Shown here: positions 4,916-55,611 of the stretch, in pieces
Numbering within the stretch: the first letter of the stretch is position 1
How the letters are laid out: each line of letters begins with the position of its first letter
Source of the DNA: Lama glama
Lineage: Eukaryota
Assembly: GCA_028534125.1 (NCBI GenBank)
Contig: CM052816.1
Span: 9,116,001-9,180,000 of the forward strand
Length of the DNA: 64,000 nt
Direction: 5' to 3'
Position numbers and translations under genes: made by a program
Notes under the pieces: generated by a model
What the model was told of the DNA's origin: nothing
The model's input: the letters and a program-made list of their open reading frames with translations, nothing else
Database searches by the model: none

Positions 4916-4967
4916 ATGGGTGGCTGCTTCTGCATCTCGGGGGAGCCAAGTCTGTCCTGGGGCCCAG
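4916..4967 (+). CDS. SH3TC2: SH3TC2 exon 1 coding part (MGGCFCISGEPSLSWGP-G), with the N-myristoylation/palmitoylation motif
   Basis: ATG at 4916, 52 nt, donor CAG|gtgagt. MGGCFC is the known SH3TC2 N-terminus. Confidence 0.95.
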
Positions 4968-5505
4968 GTGAGTTTCCTGGGGGGCTCTGGCCTGTGGCTT
5001 GGCCGAGGTGGTGGGTCCAGTGAAGGCTCAGAGAACTGCTGGGTTGGGGGAACTGCTCTTCCAAAGGCAGGAGATGGTTGTGCTTTCTGGCTCCTTCTCC
5101 TCCCTCTCTCCCTTAGTGTTTGTCATTCGGGGCTTGTGAAAAGGGAGTGAGGCCTGGGGAGCATCTACCTCTCCTGAAGAAAGAGGCTTTGAGCTCACTC
5201 TGCAAGGAGGGCAGAGAGCTGCTCTTGGCTGACATTCCCAGGGCATGACGAAGCCTTTCCTTCCTTTCCTCCCAAGATTCCCTAGGTCAGGAAGAAAGCT
5301 CAGGCAGTGAGTTCCTCTGGGACCCAGGGGTGGTCTTAAACGTGGCCTCAGTCATCCAACCCTATTTTCATCAGGGTTGATGTTACTGGAGAAAAACAGG
5401 CAGTCTCGTGCCTCCTACCTCTTACAGTGTGATTTTTTTTTTCGGTGTGTCAAATTGAGGCCATTAGAGGTATTGCTCTAAGAAATTGCATTCTGAGACT
5501 TGCCA

Positions 5506-9801: not shown

Positions 9802-11070
9802 TTCCCTCCAGTTTTATTGAGATATAACTGATATTTAGCACTGTAAAATTTTAAGGTGTATAGCATAAAGGCTTGACTTCCATACATCATGAAGTGATTA
9901 TCACAATAGGTTTAGTGAACATCCATCATTTTCTACAGACACAAAGTTAAAGAAAAGGAAAAAAATTTTTTCCCTTGTGATTTGGGTCCTCTCTCTTTTT
10001 TTCTTGATGAGTCTGGCTAAAGGTTAATCATTTGTATTTATTTTTCCAAAGAACAAGCTCTTAGTTTCTATTGTTTGTTCCTCTTTTTCTAGTTCCTTTA
10101 GCTGTAAGTTTAGTTGTTTATTTGTGATTTTTCCTGTTTTTCAGGTTAGGCTTGTACCATCATAAATCTGCCTCTTAGAACTACTTTTGCTGTATCCAGT
10201 AGATTTTGGATCATTGTGTTTTAGTTTTCATTTGTCTCCAGGTTTGTTTTTTTTTTAAGTTTCTTCTTTGATTTTTTTCAGTGATCCACTGGTTGTTTAG
10301 CAGCATATTGTTTAGCCTCCACATGTTTGTCCTCTTTGTAGTTTTTTCCCTTGTAGTTAATTTCTAATCTTACAGTTTGGTGTTCAGAAAAGATGCTTGA
10401 TATGATTTCAATTTTATTAAATTTCCTGAGACTTGTTTTGTGACCCAGCATGTGATTTACCCTAGAGAATGTTCCATGTGCACTTGAAAAGGATATGTAT
10501 GGAATAGATGGAATGTTCTATATATATTATGTTCATCTTGTCTAATGTGTCACTTAAGGCTAGTGTTTCCTTATTGATTTTCTGTCTAGATGATCTGTCC
10601 ATTGATATATTTGGTAGGTTCATTATGTTTCCTGACCTTGGAGTAGTGGTCTTTTGCAGGAGATGTTTTATGCATCCCAGCAGTGCACTCCCCTCTGGTC
10701 ACCAGAGCTATATTTTCTGGCCAAATATTCTGGAGGTTTGCCTTTCTGATCCAGGACCCTTGGGCTGGGGAGACAAAGGTGGGGCCTGGACCCCTCACTC
10801 CTGGGGGACAACCTCCACCATTGTAATTATCCTCCCATCTGCGGGTTGTCCACCTTGGAGTGTGGGACTTGACTATATTATGTCTCTGCTTCTTCTACTT
10901 GTCCACCCGTTTTGTTGCTGCTTCTTTATATCTGTAGTTATGGAAGATTTTTCTGCTAGTCTTCTGGTCTTCCTCATCAATAGTTGCTCTGTAAATAGCT
11001 GTAATTTCAGTGTGCCTGTGGGAGGAGGTGCGCTTAGGGTCTTCCTCCTCTACCATCTTGGCCACTCCCC
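9802..11070 (-). mobile_element. Internally deleted L1 (5'UTR start + ORF2 piece + 3'UTR end) with degenerate TSD
   Basis: The minus strand begins ggggagtggccaagatgg, contains ORF2-like MDRSSRQKINKETLAL..LARLIKKKRERTQI and ends ctcaataaaactggagggaaaaa. Flanks are tatatgatagcttt / tgtgtgatagtttc. Confidence 0.7.
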
Positions 11071-11519
11071 TGTGTGATAGTTTCTTGTTGGGATCTCTGG
11101 TTCTTTTTCAAAGCCCAGCTCAAGTCTTCAAATTCTTTCATGCTGAAATATAATTCCATGTGTAAAAGAGCTCTGTAAACTATAAATCCCTGCACAACTA
11201 TTAAGAGCTCACTGCTTTTCCAGATTTCCTTATTGTTTCCCAAGGAGCTGTCTTCTGGTTCATAGGTCCCAAAGCATTTGGTGCATTGGCTCGTTCTACT
11301 CCAGAGATTCATACTGTAGAGAACATAAGAAACCCCTAAGGTGCTAGTTAAGAACGCATGTCTCCTGATTCTGCCCCTAGATATTCTCAGGTAGAGTTAA
11401 GTGAGGAGGGTTTCAGAAATATTTTAAAATTCATCTTTTTTTGGGAGGGGAACCTATCATTCCTACAGAATTGTGTATGAAATTATATGTATATAGCCTG
11501 GTAAATTTTCACAAGGTTC

Positions 11520-12100
11520 CTATAGCTGTTAATTCATTTTTTCTCATTGGTATACTGTATTTAATCATACATATCATCATTTACTTACCTATTCTAGTGT
11601 TGACGAACATTTGAGTTGTTGCCAGGTTTGGGCTGTTATGAATTGCTACTGCTCTGAGTATTTTAGTAGATATGTTCTGGTGAACATATGTATGTATTAC
11701 TTGGGATAATAGTGGGTGGAACTGCTGAATCTTATACATGTGTATCTGTGCATATGTTTAGCTTGAGTTGATACTGTCAAACAGTTTTCCAAAGTGAAAA
11801 TTATCAAAATTTATTCTCACACTTGCAGTATTCAGGAGTTCTAGTTGCTGTGTATCCTTATAAACACTTGGCTTTACCTGTTTGTTTGTTTCATTTTTGC
11901 CAATCTGTGTAGTGATGTTCCATTGTAGTTTTTATTTTCATTTTCCTGATGAGCTTGAGAAAATTTTCATAAATTTATTGGCTGTTTGGATATTATCTTT
12001 GGTGAAATGCCTATTCAAGGCCTTTGCCCATTTTTCTAGTGGGTTACCTACCTATTTCCTAAATATTTTTAGCATTCTTTATATACTCAGGATTTGAATT
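11520..12100 (-). mobile_element. Old L1 (L1ME-like) fragment
   Basis: gttgacgaacatttgagttgttgccaggtttggg, aacagttttccaaagt, gtgaaatgcctattcaaggcctttgcccattttt. Confidence 0.7.
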
Positions 12101-12824
12101 CTTTGATGAACATACATATTGTCTACAGCTCCTTCTATGCCAATATACACATTACTTTTTTTGTGGGTAGTATTTTTCCATCTTGTTTAAGAAATCACTG
12201 GCTACCCCAAGTTATGCAGATACTCTTCTCTGTTTTGCTCCAAGTTTATTTGTTTGTTTTCTTTATCGGTATCTTTTTTTTTAAAAAGCACCTAAATAAT
12301 TCTAATGCAGACTATCCACAAATCACACTCTGAAAAACTCTGCAATTTTCCGCTCTAAACCTCACATGCCCTTTAAGAGCTGTGCATCCCGCCCTCTCCT
12401 CCAAACCAAGGTCACCATCTTGGACTTCCTTCTTCAAGGTGGGCTAATGCCAGAGGCCCTCATGGTCCTCAGGCCATTGTCTCTTTTCATGTATCCTTAC
12501 AACAGGGATAAACTCACAAAGCTTGCCAGGGCTGGGTGTAAATGAGTGAGCTGGCGGTTTGGGGACTGTGATGACCAGAGAACAAATGCCCCACAGAGAT
12601 GGCAGCAACCACCCAGTCCCAGATAACTGTTGCCAGATGAGCATGAAGGCCCCAGGCAATAGTTTTTCCAGTTTTCAAAGCCAAGGCAAGCATCTGGGTT
12701 ATGTAAAACACCCTGATTTCTAAATGATGTAGAGCAATTCAAACTTTAAAAATTAACTCTGTGGGGAAAAAAAGAAAAAAAAATGTTCGTGGGTTTTCTG
12801 TGGCCTGTGGCCTCTGGTATACCA

Positions 12825-13015
12825 GTTTTCAAACTTTGTCCTAGAGGAGGGAATCAGGCTGCCACTCCAAGTGTGACCCTGGGACCAGAGCATCTCCTGG
12901 GAGCACATCTGAAATCCAGAAACTCAGGCTTTTAACTGCTGAGGCACAATCTGCATTTTATCAATAATCCCAGGTGATTCATACACTCATTAAAGTCCGA
13001 AAACTTTATGTAGAC
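12825..13015. mobile_element. MER5A-like hAT element
   Basis: gggaccagagcatctcctgggag..gaaatccagaa..ctgcatttta..caggtgattc motifs. Confidence 0.55.
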
Positions 13016-14201
13016 GTATGGTTCTTAATAACTGGCTCAAAGAATCATTTGGGGAACTGGAGAAAAATACCTGTATAGATGTGGCGAGGCGCTCTCCTGG
13101 GCGGGGCCTACGCAGGGTCGGACGAGGGATAGACGTTCATGGCGAAAGGGGCCGCTCTTCCTGTCTGCGGGCCCCTGGCCTCTCCTCCCCGCCCGTTGGT
13201 GGCGTGTGGGAGGCCGCGGTGCGGAGTCCAGCCGACCTCGGTCTCCCGCCCATGCCTCAAGGTGCCGGCCGGGCGGGGGTCGCCTGCCGCAGCGGGCACT
13301 CTGGCCTGGGCGTCTCGGCGCGTCTCACGGGCGCTGCGTGCCCCCCGTCGTGCGTGCGCGCGTCTCGCTCGGCGCTCCGCGGTGCGCCCGCAGCGCTCCA
13401 GGTCGTCCCCCCGGTGCCGAGGCCGAGCGGTGGCGACGTTTTCCTGTTCCTGGCGAGCCCCTCGCGTCCCCACTGCGGTGGTGCGTCCCGTGAGCAGCTC
13501 TCTTCGGGGGGGGAAGTGGGGTGAGACGGTAAGGGAGGCACGCCTGGTGGGGGACAGGTGCCTCGTCGTGGTCGCCGTCACGGCGCGCCGGGCGGGACGG
13601 CCTTGGCCCCCCTCCCCTTCGCAGGGCTTGCACGTGGGCGTGTGAGAGACTGTGGCGGGCTGGGCGAAGAGAAGCGGGGGCTCTGTCAGACTTTTCAGAC
13701 GAGCTCCCTCGTGAGGCAAACGGACGAGCCTGAGTGAGCGGAGGCTTTTCCCGGCGCTGACCGCGAACGCTCACGTTGGCGCCACTCTTATCCAGGCCGC
13801 AGCCCCCACCCCGCCCAGCCGGGAGGTGGCACCTCTTCACATGCCTCCGTGGGCCCGAAGGGTGGGGTGGGGGACGACTCGCCCTCGGTGAGAAAGCCTT
13901 CCTTCTTTAGCCATCCGAGAGGGAGCTTTGAAGTACCGGACTCCCCCAGCTTCCACTCCTCCAAAGCGTGCAGTAACCACCCCTGCCATGTAGGCAGAAC
14001 CCCTCACCTTCGCCTGAGGGGTGCGCGCGCCCCGCGGTGGGGCCCAAAACCTCTCTTAAAAAAAAGGGAAAAAAAAATGCCTGTGACTGGGCTGCAGTAC
14101 GAACGACTTAAACCAGCATTTCTGGAGATGAGGCCCAAGCACTGATATTTTCAAAAAGCAATCTGGGTGATTTGAATAGGCAGCCATGGTTGAGAAGCAC
14201 T
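13016..14201. mobile_element. MER5-type hAT-Charlie element split into two halves (13016-13074 and 14073-14201) by the 5'ETS retrocopy
   Basis: Left half ggttcttaa..gaatcatttggggaact..aaaaatac and right half ..gaggcccaagca..attttcaaaaagc..ggtgatt..gcagccatggttgagaagcact rejoin into a MER5B-like unit. Confidence 0.65.
13075..14072 (+). pseudogene. Processed retrocopy of the pre-rRNA 5' external transcribed spacer (approximately the A'/01 to A0 fragment)
   Basis: GC/CpG-rich block with collinear matches to the human 5'ETS as recalled: ATAGATGTGG 13075-84, GACGTTCATGGCGAA 13132-46, GGCGTGTGGGAGG, GCGCTCCAGGTCGTCCC..GGTGCCGAGGCCGAGCGGTGG, CGCGAACGCTC, CCCTCGGTGAGAAAGCCTT 13882-900, GTACCGGA. A-tail at 14058-72. 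TSD aaaaatacctgt (13063-74) / aaaaatgcctgt (14073-84). Confidence 0.85.
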
Positions 14202-15714
14202 AATTTAGATTAAGCCCTCATTTATCACTGGGAACAGCGAAATCTCAAAAAATAGATGAAATATCTTGATGAACGTGACTTAACTAATGTATGGGAGACT
14301 CTGATTTGTGCTTAGACTCCTATCTCATGATTCCCAAGCCAGAGCCTTTCTGCTGCAGTTACCTTTGGTTCCTGGGGGCAGAACTACAAAATGATCCTGG
14401 TCGACTACAGCTCATTACTGCCAGCTTTCCAGCTAAGCTGCTAGCTTTCAGCACTGACCCCTAACAAGATTTACTAGATGAAGAGCTGTGAACTGATGGT
14501 CCTCTCCTTCAGCCTGTTCAAGCCAAAATCTATTTCATTCTCCCTGTTCATCACCCGCCAAAAAGTACTAACTGTTTCCACTATGAAGAAATGGAAGATC
14601 CACAGCTTGGGTCTCAAAATCCCAGTATATAGGGACAGAAGGAGGCAGACTCCTGGCAGCAATACGAGGATTTGAGTTCAGCTTTAATCAGCAGTGACTG
14701 GATGGAGTGTGATTACTTCATCCCTTATCATTTTAGGGCTGCATCAACAGAAGCACAGGTCCAGAATGCAAACCTAGTAGGTCTGCTTGACTTTGACCCA
14801 TCAACATTTTACAGTTGAAGAAGTTGGGTGAATTAGATGAATGACTCACAAATAGTGTTTGAGCCAAGATTCCAAACCCCTCTTTCCAGTATCAGGTAAT
14901 GCTCATAATATTCTGACCCCATAGTAGAGTGCTTGAGCAGTTGCATGTTCAAAACAACAGAGTAACCGAAAGTAATGGGTTAAGAACTTGAGTCCTCTTG
15001 TTGTATTTTGAGGATACCATGAAGGAGGCCCATATTCCATACGAATAACTTGTGAGATTCCCTTGTACTCTTTTATATCTACTTCCTTGTGCTTTATGGC
15101 TTCAGTCTTCTTTTTTCACCTCTGTGCCATCAAAATAGCCTCCTCCCTAAGCCTAGTCTGTGCCATGATCTTCTTTCCTCTCCTTTTCATTCCAGTTTTA
15201 CAGCTGCAAAGACGGGAACATTTTGGAGAGCTGGGGAGGAAAGAAGTCCCACACAGGACTGGGCAGACAGAAGGGCAGTCTGGGGACAATCATACATTTC
15301 AGGGCCATTACAACCATGCCCCAGCCATCTCCCTAAAGATTCCACTGCCCCTTGCTCTGCTCCAGTACTGCTGTTATCCACCTTGCTGTAGCCAGATCTA
15401 TAATGACCTTGTAGGTTCAGCATATATCAAGCACCTTCAGTATACTAAGCCATGGGACTCAATATGACCTATGGGGGGGAATTTTTTTTTTAAATAAAGT
15501 GGGAACACCCAGGCTGCTGCAGGATTGAGAGCATGTGTCACTGTTCTTTGATAACATCTGAGTACTAAGTAATAATAAGGCAATGTTGATAACAATTAAA
15601 ATTCTTCCAGGCCACCAGCCCTGGAGAAGAAATGGCGACTTGACAAAAACTTGCAATCCTTGCTTATAACTTTCTTATACTCTCACAAATGATCTTTCAT
15701 TTGATATCCTCCAG

Positions 15715-15813
15715 GTAAAGAAACTCCTTCCAAGGATCCAACCATATCGAGTGAGTTTATATCCTCATCTGAAAGTAAGGAAAAATGTTTCCTGCCACAG
15801 AACATGACTCCAG
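15715..15813 (+). CDS. SH3TC2: SH3TC2 exon 2 ([15 protein letters not shown]...CFLPQNMTP)
   Basis: Acceptor ctccag|, donor CAG|gtatct, 99 nt, phase 1-1. Confidence 0.95.
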
Positions 15814-18800
15814 GTATCTAAATGCCAAAGCAAAAACTGTTAAAAACATTTTCCATGTAGAATATTGAAGTAATCCCCTTATCAGTCGTGTCTGCAAACT
15901 CCCTCCCTCTGATCCTTTCTAGATGCTTCCATTAAATGCATCTTTGTAGGCATGACCTTGTCAATGATACTCACTTGCTCACAAATCTTCCAGTGCTCTG
16001 CATTGCCTATAAGATTAAGCTAAACCGTCTCAAGCTGACACTCAGAGCTCTTCGCAATCTGGCACATGTTAGGAGCTCCATACATATTTGCTCTATTAAA
16101 TAAAGTGTATTATCGAACAGATTTTAAGGTGCTGAAGGGCAGGAGTAATTTTTTGAATAATTAAATATTCTGCATAATACCTAAAAGAGTTGCTTGTCCA
16201 TAATTGGTGCTCAGAAAATTTTTGGTAAATACATACATGAATAATTGAGTAAGTACATGGAGGTCATGCTTGTATTCTGTATACTACCTAAAATAGTACC
16301 TTATACAGAGTTGGTTAAGTAAATGAATAAGTGAATGAAGAAAGGGTTGAGTAAGTGGGGGGGAAATTGGCTAGCAGAAGGGTGTCCGTCTCAATCTTTC
16401 AGGAGGAGAAGAAATTTTGAAACCTTGTACTGGAAACTCCGAGGATAAAGCTATAAAAGACTCAGCCGCTGTTATCCAGTACTAGGGACCATTTTTGAGG
16501 GCAAATCCCATGCCAAGAGCAAGCTAAGTCATCCCTACATCTTCTCATCTTCACACACTTACCTCTAGGAGGTGGCACCAAACTCCGCATTTCAAAGGTG
16601 GCAAACCAGAGTCTCAGAGAGGGAGGTGACCTCCGCAGTGTCACACAGTTAATACATGATGAGAAAGGGATTCGATCCCTGGTCCTTGTTTTTAACCATG
16701 TTGCCTCTTTGCCCCCTGAACTTATACGTCTATCCAGCATACAAAATAGAGATTTGTGAAAAAGATTTGCATTATGAATGTTTTAAAGCATATACACTAT
16801 ATAAGCAGATAGTGTATAAATGTCATGTCTTCTCAAACTTCTTGGTTGACAATGAGAAAAACCTGGCCCTTTATTTCTTGCTGTTATGTCAATCTGCTTA
16901 TCTGTCTGTCAGCTTGGGCCATCCCTGCAAAAAGCTGAATCACCCACCATCTGTTGTTTCATGAACACAGTGGAGTCAGCATTTTGCCTTACTAGTGCAC
17001 AAAGGCCAACAAACAAAGGGTACATGTAGGTGAAACTTAACCACCCCAGCCTGAGCTTGTCCATCCTTCAGCATTTTCTGCCATGATGCTGTTTCCAGGA
17101 AGGCCATACAGAAGGGGAGACTCAGCTCCAGCTGCCCACTTCTTTATGTGGAAGAGTCAAAGGCAGAATCAATGAGATATATTATTATGATTAAACCACC
17201 AGTTTTCAGAAGGATCAAAGAAATGACAAAATGCACTTCACACTAAAACTAGAGTGAGCTTGATTTATTCCCCTGTCCAGTGATGCAGAGAAGGCTCTGT
17301 AGGATTCCGCAGTGGGCCCCGAGGCACTTCTCTGAGTAGCAGTTCACTTATTTAAGTCCAGGTCTTTTTAGTTTCATAACCATGGATTCAACTGCATGGC
17401 AAGGAGATTCACACCGAAGGGGCTACCATTCATCAGGAGCTATTCTGAGACAGATTCTAGAGGGGAGTTTGGTTAAGGCTTTGGAAGGACAGGAGAGATG
17501 GGTTTGGTGAAAAGGAATTACAGAATCAGAATCAAGGTTAATTACAGTGTAACAAAATGAGGGCAGCTAGCAGTAACTGCTAGAGAACTGGGGTGGGATG
17601 GGGGTTTGTGAGAGGCAACAGCTAATACATAACCTGTTTATTGAACATTTAGTATGCACCTGGCACTGAACAAAAAGCTTTATGCACATAATCTCATTTA
17701 GTAAGCCTCTTAAAACCCCTGTGGGATAGTACTGTAAAAGCCATTCTGCTAATGAGAAAAGTCAAGCTTAGAGAGGTGCTCGGGGCACAGAGTTAACAAA
17801 GGCAGAGCCAAGTCTTAAGCCCAGGTCTGCGTGACTCCTCCTCCCTGGGCTTCACCTCCTCCTAGAGATCAGTGTGCAGTGAGGCTACTACCAGACGGAG
17901 GGTTGGACCTGGATTGCCGAAGATGGAGGGCTTGCATGAGATTAGAACACAGGCCAGGGAGGAACAGAGTGGCACAAACATCCACCTGAAGAAGCTCACA
18001 CCAACGTCAGGTCAGTTGGGCATATTGTATGGGAGCTGGCCTACAGCCACAGCATTTCGAGGACTTCTAGGTTAAAGATAAGCCATTTAAAGATAGGAGT
18101 CCAGGCTGCCTGTGGACTCAGGCCAGTATAACAGGGGCCATCTCTAATGTGCTTAGGAATTTGCAAAGACCCTGGCAAGCTAGGGCTAGAAGACAGACCT
18201 CTTGTGTTTATTCAGTGGACGTCTTCTCGGTTCATTGTGTTTGATAATTATTAACAGGGTCGCTACTTGTTGTCTAAAGAAGACATGGCAAAGTGCAATT
18301 ATAAGATGAGCCTCCTCAGTGTGCCTTTCCCGACAAGGCTGTCTGCCCTCCAACAGCTCCATCACTGTCTCTTTACCCTATTACATTTTTTTATTCATAG
18401 CACTTCTCTCCATCTGAAATTACTGTGTTCGTGGGGTTGGTTGCTTGCCCAGAATACAAGCTCCATGAGAATAGGACTGTGTCTTTTTTGTTTCCTGCTA
18501 TATCCCAGCACCTAAAACAACTTCTGTTCATAGTATTGGTTGAATAAATGTGCATTTTGAAGACATTAAAGGTTGACTTTAATATGTAAACTAATTACCC
18601 ATACAAGCAATGAGTGCATTATCAGAAAGAAACAGGTTAGAGAAACTGTATGTGTGTATATATAATGTGTAAAGTATGTAATAATTATTACATATCAATA
18701 CACTTCCATAAATTAGTATTCTTTGGAAACTTTCACAAACCATCCAGAGGAGGAAATGTATGTCCTAGCTGGTTCTGTGTGGTACTGTTCCTACAGTGCC

Positions 18801-38717: not shown

Positions 38718-38759
38718 GTGGGTTTGAATCCATCCAGAATCTTCCAAACGATCTGAGTG
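38718..38759 (+). CDS. SH3TC2: SH3TC2 exon 10 ([14 protein letters not shown])
   Basis: Acceptor tatccag|, donor GTG|gtgagt, 42 nt. Confidence 0.93.
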
Positions 38760-38883
38760 GTGAGTAGAGATCATGCTAAACCTGACCTCCAGTCCTGCTG
38801 GACAGCATCCTGTCCTCTTGCCAAGACCTGGCCACTGCAGTTGCAGGTACTTAGGGTTGCTCAACTCTGCCTGTCCCTTTCAG

Positions 38884-40581
38884 CATCCCAGCCCGAAGTC
38901 TTCAAGGACACTCAGCCTGGTGGAGCCTGGGAGGAGCATCAGGCAGTAGGCTCCAGACAGTCCAGCAGCTCCGAGGACTCCAGCTTGGAGGAGGAGCTCC
39001 TTTCAGCTGCCTCAGACACCTACCACCTGCCAGAGCCTGATGACCTCGATGACCCAGAACTGCTCATGGACCTGAACACCGGTCAGGAGGAGGAGGAGGC
39101 TGAGAACTTCGCCCCCATATTGGCCTTTCTGGATCACAAGGGTTATGCTGACCATTTTAAGAGCCTCTATGATTTTTCCTTCTCTTTCCTCACGTCTTCC
39201 TTTTACAGCTACTCTGAGGAGGATGAGCTCGTGGCCTACCTGGAGGCCTCGAGGAAATGGGCCAAGCGGAGCCACATGACCTGGGCCCACGCCCGGCTCT
39301 GCTTCCTCCTGGGCCGTCTGAGTGTCAGGAAGGTCAAACTCTCTCAGGCCAGGGTGTACTTTGAGGAGGCCATCCACATTCTCAACGGGGCATTTGAGGA
39401 CCTATCCTTGGCAGCTGCTCTGTACATCAATTTGGCGGCCATCTATCTGAGGCAGAGGCTGAGGCATAAAGGCTCGGCCCTGCTGGAAAAGGCAGGTGTC
39501 CTGTTGGCCTGCCTGCCTGATCGTGAGTCTAGTGCCAAGAGCGAGCTGGACGTGGTAGCCTATGTGCTGAGACAGGGCATCGTGTCGGGCAGTTGCCCCC
39601 TGGAGGCCAGGGCTTGCTTCCTGGCCACCCGATTGCTCCTAAGCCTTGGCCGGCATGATGAGGTCCTGCCCTTCGCCGAGCGCCTGCAGCTCCTCTCCGG
39701 ACACGCCCCTGCCTCTGATGCTGCCGCCACCATCTTGAGCTTTCTCTATGACAAGAAATATCTGCCACACCTTGCAGTGGCCTCTGTCCGGCAACGTGGT
39801 ACTCAGAGCACCCAAGGGATGGCCCTTCCAATTTGGCAGGTCCACCTGGTCCTCCAGAATGCCTCCAAGCTCCTTGGCATCCCCTCCCCAAGCTGGGGTG
39901 AAGTTTCTGCCCTGGCCTGCCCGGCACTCAGGCAGGCGCTAGCTGCCTGTGAGGAACAGGCGGACTGGAGCACCCAGAGGGCCCTGTGTCTCATCCTGTC
40001 CAAAGTGTACCTCCAGCACAGGTCTCCTGACGGTGCCATCCACTACCTGAGCCAAGCCTTGGTGCTGGGCCAGCTGCTGAGTGAACAGGAAGCTTTTGAG
40101 TCTTCTCTCTGCCTGGCATGGGCCTATCTCTTAGCCAGCCAGGCAAAGAAGGCTTTGGACGTCCTCGAGCCACTCTTATACTCCCTGAAGGAAAAAGAGA
40201 GTGTTACCCAAAAGGGAGTGGTCCATAACCTCCTGGGACTTGCACTTCAAGGTGAAGGCCGGGTGAATAAGGCAGCCAAGAGTTACCTCCAGGCCTTGAA
40301 CAGAGCCCAGGAGGCGGGGGATGTGCGTAACCAAGCAGTGACTTTGGCCAATCTTGGCCACCTGACCCTTAAGTCCTGGACTCAGCAGCCGGCCAGGGAC
40401 TATCTTCTGCAGGCTGTGCAACTCTATTCTAAATTCCAGGCCAGCATGGAGACAGATATGGAGTTAGTACAGGTGCTTCTCTGGTTGGCCCAAGTCCAGG
40501 TATATGGACGCCACCTGACCAGTGGCCGCTTTTGTTATGAAATGGCATTGCTGTTTGGCTTAAGGCATCGACACCTAAAGA
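38884..40581 (+). CDS. SH3TC2: SH3TC2 exon 11 (large exon: acidic region plus TPR repeats)
   Basis: Acceptor ctttcag|, donor AGA|gtgagt, 1698 nt open reading frame. It is the core of ORF 38757..40604. Confidence 0.98.
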
Positions 40582-40627
40582 GTGAGTATGTCCCGTGCTG
40601 CTGAGACGCTTTAAAGCTGAGTGTTAG

Positions 40628-53400: not shown

Positions 53401-53782
53401 TAGGTGCTTATGAAAAAAATGTTGTAGTGTAGCTGAAAGATGAATGGACTGTGGGCCAGTAATAATAGCAGTGATAACTAACATTTAAACATTTATCAAG
53501 TGCTTACTCTATGGAGGGCACTCTTCTAAGGACTCTATCTCATTTGATCCTCACAATGATCTTTTGAGCCAGGTACAGTTATATCCCATTTTACAGATAG
53601 AGAATCGAAGCACAAAGAGGTTCTGCACTTTCTCAAGGTCACACAGCTGGTTGAGGCAGACCCAGGATTCATATCAGTCCCTGATCTCCCTGTGTGATTT
53701 GAAACAATGTTGTTTCCTCCTCTGCTGAGTGACTCAGGGCCCCTTTGAACCCTCACATTCTATGAACCCATGTTTCTCCCAG

Positions 53783-53933
53783 GTCCCTCAGGAGGTCCCT
53801 CACCTGCATCAAGGAGAGTCTGCGTATCTTCATCGACCTGGGGGAGAAAGACAAGGCCGCTGAGGCTTGGCTTGGGGCTGGGCGACTCCACTACCTCATG
53901 CAGGAAGATGAACTGGTGGAGCTGTACATGCAG
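53783..53933 (+). CDS. SH3TC2: SH3TC2 exon 13 ([21 protein letters not shown]...DELVELYMQ)
   Basis: Acceptor ctcccag|, donor CAG|gtcggc, 151 nt. Confidence 0.95.
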
Positions 53934-55611
53934 GTCGGCCTCCGGCAGAGCTCATCTGCTGACCTGGGTGGTGGGGGGAGGCAGGTTTACCCTCCGGAGG
54001 GGTCAGCTGGAACTAGGGAGACGTGGTGTCTTTGCCAGTCCTTGGAGGGACAGTCAACCCTGGGCTGCTCCCTGGACACGAGATGGAAACCAGGGCAGTC
54101 TGGCAGGCTGAACACAAGCGGCAGTGAACACACTCACACTCATACAGAGACTCACACAAAGGCAGATCCCACGTGCATGTGTGAGCTCTCAAAGAACGTG
54201 GTGGGAGGCTTGCTCATCTCGCATGTCAGTTTTATCTCTCTTTCCAAAACTCGATACATGACTTCAGAGTTTTGCTGCAGTTTGAGGCAAGGTTGTTGTA
54301 TGCTGGGTGTTAACACTGTTGTTCTTTTATGATTTTTTTTGTTTGCATACCTTTAATATCTGAGATATGGCGTAGCGTAGTGATTAAGGACATGGGCTTT
54401 GCAGAAAGAAAGGCCTGGAATCAAATCACAAGGCCATCGCTTATGAATTGTGTGACCGTAAGCTTGCTACATGAGCTCTCTGGGCTCAGTTTCTTCACGG
54501 GTGGATCTGCCTCTGGGAAAGATTAGGTATAACATTTGCACAGTAAACACATATGCATCTATAAGTATTTACTAAGTGCTTGGGACCTAGTAAATGTTTA
54601 GTAAACGATATTTTATCATCATCTCTACTATTATGTGCACAATATTGACATTGTGATGGCATATAAGAAGATTTCTTCCATCAAAAATATGCCTGTTATC
54701 TTTTCTCCTTCTTATTTCTCATTTTCTCCCCTTTTACTTACCCTTACTCTGTTACTTACACTCAGACAAATTCACTTCCACCAAGACTTAAAAATGGTTG
54801 TGTAACATTGATTGAAGGCTTACTATGCCCAGGAGACTTTGAGCACTTCGCATGCGTGATGTAGTTTAATCCTCACTAAAATGCGGCAGCAGTTTCTGCT
54901 GAAATTCCCATGTGACTGATGAGTCTCAGTGAGGCTGAGGAGCTTGCCTGAAGTAATAGAGCTAGTAAGTGGGGAAACCTGCACACCAGCGATGTGACTT
55001 AAAGCTTTCACTCGCAGACTGTATTCTGCCTTGGGATTTTGGAGCTGGAAGAATTATCAGAAAGCAGACAATTCAGTCTTGCCTTTCACTCCCTGGCAGA
55101 CGAGGTCCAGAGGGAGATTTTGGGGTTTTTCACTGCTGGGTGGCAGAACTGTCTCCAGGATTCCAACTCACTATCTTTGTGTAACTCCATATGCAATAAA
55201 AATAACTGAGGGGTCTTGCCCCAGGGATTCACTGGTCAGAACTAGTCCCCGCCCTCCAACTCTAGGCCCCCACCTGACTTGTGCTTGTGCACTCATTTCC
55301 ACCAAGGTGAGCCGTTCTCTCCCTAAGGCCTGTACTGCTTCCTCATCACATTTTGTTTGGGTGTGATATGAGGTAGCTTGCTTGAGTTATAAGGAGATCA
55401 TAAGGGCCAGGAGAAGGGTAATGGGGTAAAAGACACTAGCACTTGTTTGCCACTAACTGTTGATGTGAATTTGAAAGCTCCTTATTCTTTCTGAGCCTCA
55501 GTTTCTCCATCTGGAAAGTGTAGGTATTGAATGAGATCACCGTTTTCCAAACTTCGGTCATTTATATGTCAAGTTTATGGTTTTGCCATATTCAGATACC
55601 TCTGTGCCATT

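Follow-up and report, generated by a model that had tools for sequence, protein, structure and literature searches.

How does a block of about 1 kb that is dense in CpG dinucleotides come to lie in the CpG-poor first intron of a protein-coding gene? The question is raised by a stretch of 64,000 nt from Lama glama (assembly GCA_028534125.1, contig CM052816.1, positions 9,116,001 to 9,180,000 of the forward strand; hereafter the window, whose own numbering is used throughout), in which such a block interrupts intron 1 of SH3TC2. Our reading is that the block is an ancient processed retropseudogene of an internal spacer fragment, released by cleavage at the sites 01/A' and A0 from the 5'ETS (5' external transcribed spacer) of the RNA polymerase I (Pol I) precursor ribosomal RNA (pre-rRNA), and we give this reading a probability of roughly 0.8. 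The first-pass annotation had described the block more broadly as a retrotransposed copy of the 5'ETS. LINE-1 (L1) type copying of a Pol I spacer RNA is retained here, and the template is narrowed to the internal 01/A'-A0 segment rather than the 5'ETS in general. The parts of the insertion are as follows.

13075 to 14057, plus strand: body of the retrocopy, 983 nt, assigned by homology to the 01/A'-A0 segment of the pre-rRNA 5'ETS
13063 to 13074, plus strand: 5' target-site duplication (TSD), aaaaatacctgt, starting with a run of A as expected of an L1 endonuclease target
14058 to 14072, plus strand: A-rich tail, A8 GGG A4, continuing into the A5 of the 3' TSD
14073 to 14084, plus strand: 3' TSD, aaaaatgcctgt

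The body has a GC content of 0.70 and carries 107 CpG at an observed-to-expected (o/e) ratio of 0.88, against 13 CpG (o/e 0.11) in the 3 kb to its left and 23 CpG (o/e 0.18) in the 3 kb to its right. The GC profile steps from about 0.41 up to 0.75–0.79 and then back down, in agreement with the abrupt CpG-dense block of about 1 kb that had been noticed at first. The A-rich tail and the 12-bp direct repeat with one mismatch that had been reported are likewise both present. The tail consists of A8 (14058–14065), GGG (14066–14068) and A9 (14069–14077), and no AATAAA is found ahead of it. The direct repeats aaaaatacctgt and aaaaatgcctgt match at 11 of 12 positions and abut both ends of body plus tail; the score of this TSD was attained by 17 of 500 shuffles in a crude local alignment of 47 nt upstream with 110 nt downstream. 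L1 endonuclease sites are of the TT/AAAA-like type, with a TSD starting in A's. Here, the TSD opens with AAAAA and the preceding bases are AG, not TT. The 5'ETS motifs listed in the first-pass annotation are all found with 0–2 changes each, several of them inside published human 5'ETS oligonucleotides. Its statement that 18S is absent also holds, since a search of 11000–16000 against Rfam (E ≤ 1) returned no rRNA family, only sub-threshold chance matches to Atu_At1 and mir-544.

On the evidence of its sequence, the block is homologous to the pre-rRNA 5'ETS. When the organism's own assembly was searched with the block, collinear relatives with 65–75% identity were retrieved on C21, C290601, C145938, C13, C16 and C37. 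Among these, C145938 is a 2.5-kb contig made up solely of 5'ETS-type sequence, without a tail, that extends beyond the 3' end of the window copy. Positions 48–970 of the block query align collinearly with C145938, sharing 70.6% identity over 913 aligned columns, and this alignment to the organism's own multi-copy 5'ETS answers the check for collinear 5'ETS similarity that had been proposed at first. The five other dispersed copies share 68–73% identity with the block. Human 5'ETS probes are positioned at 472–502 (hA'), 1409–1428 (a), 1582–1601 (d) and 1622–1639 (e) in the available text of PMC6239190. C145938 matches probe a at all 20 positions and probe e at 17 of 18, and holds probe d with 4 edits; its d-e spacing is 20 nt, the same as in human. 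In DNA run X1, a 139-nt contig with a depth of 8509 (about 285 times the single-copy depth of 29.9) matches 13865–13901, and its 30-nt overhang reads like C145938. The high depth of this contig, together with the human probe matches, indicates that C145938 represents the multi-copy live 5'ETS. Two of the human probes have equivalents in the block.

13123 to 13153, plus strand: equivalent of human 5'ETS 472–502 (sense of northern probe hA'), 25 of 31 identical, no indel
13903 to 13922, plus strand: equivalent of human 5'ETS 1409–1428 (sense of probe a), 17 of 20 identical

The hA' match has 6 substitutions, and none of 300 block shuffles came nearer than 9. The sense of probe a is matched once across the 64-kb window, where chance would give 0.01. 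The order of 5'ETS upstream of 18S was read in the C21 paralogue, the live contig C145938 being only 2.5 kb long. The C21 paralogue, with a 5'ETS-homologous stretch at L020 5909–6785, runs 1.4 kb further into the 5' part of 18S (L020 8205–8760; Rfam SSU_rRNA_eukarya 4–605, 140.8 bits, cut-off 50). Rfam gave no family on contigs C290601 and C145938. A full rDNA (ribosomal DNA) unit or true 18S was sought in the assembly, where only decayed fragments were found.

DNA runs from 10 studies, carrying the labels of five coded organisms, contain the region 12500–14600. Four runs were compared with it, including three DNA runs (X1, X9 and X6) and an RNA-library run from a relative (X15). A single contig spans the region in X1, which may be the assembly's own source, with 4 differences, and another does so in X9, with an 8-nt insertion in addition to 6 differences; in X6, contigs covering 12755–14077 and 14069–14600 take in both junctions. 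Block depth equals flank depth, at 29.9 in X1 and at 9.7 and 11.2 in the other two DNA runs. Both junctions are real and at single-copy depth, and the possibility of misassembly raised at first is thus answered by three DNA runs that bear the labels of three different organisms. Slight polymorphism is seen in the tail, with A in place of G14068 in X1 and X6 and an extra A in one X6 contig. Within the block, relatives differ by indels at 13540–13549: the insertion in X9 lies behind 13540, and in X15, 8 nt are inserted behind 13542 and 11 nt are missing at 13507. Upstream of the insertion, about 40–50 nt at 12945–12996 are matched in every run by several other contigs with loose ends on both sides, and the summed depth is 124.6 vs 29.9 in X1. 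This is probably a fragment of an interspersed repeat, and the sub-threshold mir-544 match (E 0.36, minus strand) overlaps it.

One correction to the first account is that the block is no isolated case: the genome holds at least five other dispersed copies (C21, C290601, C13, C16 and C37). The five tailed copies lie in flanks unrelated to each other, save for one interspersed repeat that is found on one side of C13 and on the other side of C16; the copies are therefore separate insertions. The shared stretch (L005 800–1195 in the left flank of C13, L006 2580–2980 in the right flank of C16; 351 nt, 78% identity) is most likely a common interspersed repeat and not a duplicated insertion. The C37 copy is stopped after about 590 nt by unrelated AT-rich sequence, a further insertion, and contains a tandem expansion at L010 1690–1870 (G000 C37, about 78290500–78290700) with a unit of about 50 nt (CGCCTCGCCTTCACGCCTTCA...). 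The C21 copy (L020 5819–8760; G000 C21:4486819–4489760) has an A'-like start, runs through the remaining 5'ETS into 18S and ends at an A-rich 18S stretch followed by AAAAGAAAAGAAAAAAAAA. Its appearance is that of a retrocopied A'-cleaved precursor which was truncated and adenylated, or else primed internally. Three further loci, L023 (C14:54771615), L024 (C5:73752234) and L025 (C37:75018653), hold the decayed first 140–180 nt of 18S; they have no 5'ETS upstream, start at or near 18S position 1 and show private divergence of 6–19%.

The ends of the copies were compared with the known processing sites. Human 01/A' cleavage occurs at 414–416 and 420–422 and A0 cleavage at 1643 (Kobylecki et al. 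2018, PMC6239190, Suppl. Table S1). The first base of the window copy lies 48 nt before the hA' equivalent, corresponding to about human 424 if no indels intervene. For the sister copies, the distance from the insert start to the hA' equivalent is 51 nt (C16), 56 nt (C21), 62 nt (C290601) and about 43–51 nt (C13), compared with 50–58 nt for human A'; these are hand counts from candidate boundaries, checked against the alignment, and C13 has internal gaps. The sister 5' ends thus correspond to about human 410–431, and the five copies (window, C16, C21, C290601 and C13) start within about 20 nt of each other. With a probe-anchor error of about ±10 nt, all five would start within about 10 nt of the A' doublet. 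The human sequence presumably agrees base for base at this 5' end.

At the other end, positions transfer directly because the d-e spacing is equal in C145938 and human. Before the A run, the window copy ends in ...CCTCTCTT, the C13 copy in ...CACTCTTT and the C16 copy in ...CTCTTTGCC, which places the three ends within 4 nt of each other (live contig about 1052–1056, human about 1605–1609). The C290601 copy ends about 30 nt earlier (human about 1575), ahead of a degenerate A/T-rich stretch. The live sequence continues past the shared 3' end without an A run, and the tails were therefore added to RNA. An A tail that has no template in the live sequence, together with the TSD, bears out the proposed L1-type copying of 5'ETS RNA. 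As judged from these ends, the copy would represent the excised 01/A'-A0 by-product after some 3' trimming, fitting trimmed intermediates and not the intact fragment.

The behaviour of this RNA has been described in human and mouse. According to the available text of PMC6239190, RRP6 and DIS3 degrade the human 01/A'-A0 fragment 3' to 5' and leave its 5' end intact, cloned 3' ends fall at 1534–1634, the accumulating species measure about 1000–1100 nt and the full-length fragment was never seen; the removal of 1643–1601 is ascribed by the authors to a nuclease that they leave unidentified. Turnover of the fragment has been linked to the exosome and MTR4, as reported in the accessible part of Sloan et al. 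(2014). Poly(A)-anchored sequencing in mouse revealed 5'ETS fragments that are adenylated, end at A0 (±2 nt) and increase 8-fold on Mtr4 knock-down, and the available text of that study (PMC4057207) reports none ending at A' or at the 18S junction. The block resembles the human decay intermediates of 01/A'-A0 (ETS2) in a 5' end that would lie at the A' doublet within anchor error, in its length of 983 nt, which matches the truncated human species, and in a 3' end inside the range of the cloned human ends. The by-product is known as an RNA of human and mouse, whereas the block would be its genomic DNA fossil in a camelid. The available text of the human work names no discrete site at the shared 3' end, near human 1606.

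We propose the following origin. Cleavage at 01/A' and A0 would free the internal 5'ETS fragment, the nuclear exosome would trim it from 3' to 5' down to a pause point, and a TRAMP-type poly(A) polymerase may then have adenylated the trimmed fragment within nucleolar RNA surveillance. The A tail would let L1 ORF2p take the RNA in trans, with target-primed reverse transcription from an A-rich nick in SH3TC2 intron 1. An adenylated intermediate used as L1 template would give a 983-nt copy with an A' start, an end shortly before A0 and an A tail. Being extremely dense in CpG, the insert may subsequently have been largely spared germline CpG decay, so that it now resembles an orphan intragenic CpG island.

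Several observations weigh against this origin. The 3' ends lie 34–38 nt upstream of the human A0 equivalent and not at A0, and the positions of A' and A0 were transferred from human through probe anchors, so that indels leave an uncertainty of about ±10 nt. A query for the live camelid A' region with the first 116 nt of the C290601 copy matched only C290601 itself. The C21 copy shares the 5' end yet reaches 18S, and therefore not every copy derives from the excised fragment. Candidate TSDs of the sister copies, picked by eye, have scores attained by 77–224 of 500 shuffles; they were rejected as no better than shuffles, and for C13 the aligner favoured a different, irrelevant match. Folding of the live 3' end gives a GC hairpin followed by about 14 unpaired nt with a z-score of −1.65, which is not significant. 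Hairpin z-scores across the 3' ends range from −0.3 to −1.9, none of them significant in RNA folding, and stalling at a hairpin thus stays an inference. Trimming and adenylation are reconstructed steps, not observed ones.

A different template could be a longer or aberrant pre-rRNA (45S, 30S or a prematurely terminated Pol I transcript), with ends produced by L1 5' truncation, internal priming or random breakage. The C21 copy, which shares the start, reaches 18S and ends at an A-rich stretch, indicates that longer A'-cleaved precursors were copied too. Five starts within about 20 nt are unlike random 5' truncation, though, and three ends fall within 4 nt where the live DNA offers no A run for priming, so we consider such a template unlikely for the block. 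Fragments of rDNA can also travel as DNA, either captured where a chromosome broke or relocated through ectopic recombination ('orphons'). In the available text of PMC5381670, human rDNA pseudogenes are treated as DNA-level events, and some human rDNA-like pseudogene units include the intergenic spacer (IGS) and so were not reverse-transcribed. In the block, on the other hand, an A tail and a TSD are present and the ends lie next to RNA-processing sites; the block sits in a unique intron at single-copy depth with no promoter, IGS or further rDNA adjoining, which makes a DNA-level origin very improbable.

Two further explanations dispense with an inserted spacer RNA altogether. If the block were a native CpG island or regulatory element of SH3TC2, its likeness to the 5'ETS would come from GC-rich composition, and it does have the usual CpG-island properties and retains 66% of its inferred ancestral CpGs. 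Composition is a poor match for homology that stays collinear across almost 1 kb, both with six other loci and with the live spacer, for the single match to probe a vs 0.01 expected, for the hA' equivalent that was not approached in 300 shuffles, and for the tail and TSD, so we give this explanation very little credence. An assembly artefact, in which rDNA reads collapsed into the intron, comes to mind because rDNA is poorly assembled in this genome. With both junctions bridged at flank depth in three DNA runs and the block merely about 71% like the live rDNA, we regard it as next to impossible. The processed retropseudogene of the 01/A'-A0 fragment remains our preferred reading.

Pairwise identities among the copies, including the live one, are 61–74%. 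A maximum-likelihood tree of all seven sequences, with C37 partial, is star-like, with terminal branches of 0.22–0.42 and internal branches of 0.017–0.040; the window branch, at 0.216, is the shortest. Private differences, counted at non-CpG sites where the other copies agree, are as follows.

Window: 11–12%
C21: 12–14%
C290601: 11–15%
Live copy C145938: 11–15%
C16: 14–16%
C13: 17–18%

At 93 sites of 18S, three other decayed fragments agree with one another; the 18S part of C21 departs from them at 12 (12.9%), and as the source of that part is essentially invariant, this value is a check of the private-divergence method. When the live spacer served as query, only the known loci came back, at 65–71% identity, and no younger copy (6 candidates scored; a lower bound). 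In the X15 run of the relative, contigs with 94–97% identity lie on both flanks and on the block (13110–13282 and 13391–13937). No X15 contig bridges a junction, 13038–13109 and 13938–14198 are uncovered, and the depth is low; these contigs have no bearing on expression of the block. No paralogue is as similar as the X15 contigs, and they are therefore orthologous, so that the insertion predates the split from a relative diverged by about 2–4%. Mammalian neutral rates are 1–2.2 × 10^-9 per site per year, which would give an insertion age of roughly 50–130 million years, a rough figure given noisy alignments and a base composition far from equilibrium. Dating by ratios to the X15 relative gave implausibly large ages and was set aside in favour of this range. 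Taken from about 12% private divergence, the star-like tree and presence in the relative, the copy is evidently old and not recent. The empty site in other artiodactyls that had been expected at first is therefore doubtful, and presence of the block in further mammals would bear on the date of the insertion, not against a retrocopy.

The block has retained most of its CpG content. CpG islands are longer than 200 nt, with GC above 50% and CpG o/e above 0.6; the block has 983 nt, GC 0.70 and o/e 0.88, and every 200-nt bin has a CpG o/e of 0.71–1.14. Taking as ancestral those CpGs present in at least 3 of the other 5 full-length copies, the window retains 43 of 65 (66%), and 12 are now TG or CA. 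Retention is 65% in the live copy, 67% in C21, 80% in C290601, 44% in C13 and 46% in C16. A loss of about 22% per dinucleotide would be expected from background divergence alone, and of most CpGs under sustained germline methylation. From the retained CpGs, we infer that the insert may have behaved like a CpG island since its arrival. Against this part of the reading, the live rDNA retains CpGs equally (65% vs 66% in the window).

A broader hypothesis can be put forward tentatively, with somewhat less than even odds in our estimation. The adenylated, exosome-stalled 01/A'-A0 by-product may have been a recurrent L1 template during a short ancient burst, which the star-like tree suggests fell around the early placental radiation, the copies being fossils of A' and of a discrete 3' pause about 35 nt before A0; surveillance substrates would then reach L1, and each insertion may have seeded a self-maintaining orphan CpG island. 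If true, reverse transcription into the germline is open to a decay intermediate that surveillance has adenylated. The copies would provide an evolutionary readout of pre-rRNA processing sites, supporting an ancient A' site and pointing to a defined end on the 3' side, about 35 nt before A0, within the stretch that the human study says is removed first. The insertions would also deliver ready-made CpG-island-like DNA into genes, here into the first intron of a neuropathy gene. The value of the family thus lies in L1 access to nucleolar decay intermediates and in the antiquity of the A' site and of the 3' end near A0.

The mechanism is that of an ordinary L1-type processed retropseudogene, and what is unusual is the kind of RNA copied, a by-product of the Pol I spacer whose tail is of the surveillance type, and its occurrence as a small family with RNA-defined ends. 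Like other L1 processed retropseudogenes, the block has RNA-matching ends, a non-templated A tail and a TSD at an A run, and its family consists of dispersed copies with unrelated flanks. The usual sources of processed pseudogenes are mRNAs and abundant small RNAs, and to our knowledge nucleolar Pol I products have been thought nearly invisible to L1. The block differs in that its template is a Pol I spacer by-product and not an mRNA or a Pol III small RNA, and its tail would stem from TRAMP/PAPD5-type surveillance adenylation, where usual processed retropseudogenes owe theirs to cleavage and polyadenylation. Nucleolar Pol I RNAs are under-represented among tailless retropseudogenes in the available text of Noll et al. 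(2015; PMC5322556). The rRNA retropseudogenes and 28S/L1 chimeras of mammalian genomes (18S, 28S and 5S) are likewise rDNA transcripts inserted by L1, and this genome also carries copies of 18S 5' fragments; these come from mature rRNA, whereas the block comes from a spacer that is normally destroyed. The available text of a survey of LINE-1 chimeras reports 28S and is without '45S', 'spacer', 'pre-rRNA' or 'rDNA' (bioRxiv 10.1101/2025.02.02.635956). Orphons of rDNA (Robicheau et al. 2017) share with the block an rDNA-derived sequence outside the arrays, but they include IGS and cluster near centromeres and array edges, in contrast to the tail, TSD, RNA-defined ends and gene intron of the block. 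Our literature search found no paper on retrocopies of 5'ETS or pre-rRNA spacer, with subscription journals, Dfam and Repbase outside its scope and prior annotation possible. A short-lived nucleolar RNA was, on this account, once repeatedly pasted into chromosomes, leaving at least 5 or 6 copies in this genome.

The host gene was identified from a 615-amino-acid open frame at 38757–40604, which belongs to SH3TC2 and has as top match a Camelus dromedarius isoform with 98% identity. The first two coding exons were placed by tblastn with the full-length relative P0002.

4916 to 4972, plus strand: SH3TC2 exon 1, P0002 residues 1–19
15705 to 15818, plus strand: SH3TC2 exon 2, P0002 residues 15–52

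The block lies between these exons and is therefore in intron 1 on the strand of the gene, which confirms the location named in the first-pass annotation. The retrocopy is probably inert today. An alternative first coding exon, that of Camelus dromedarius isoform X2 (P0001 residues 1–29, 100% identity), was found at 17923–18009, 3.9 kb downstream of the retrocopy. The SH3TC2 exon at 53775–54020, for residues about 996–1080, shares only 62–65% identity with both relatives, compared with 92–100% for the neighbouring exons; this may reflect two exons merged in one tblastn match, a frame problem or an alternative exon.

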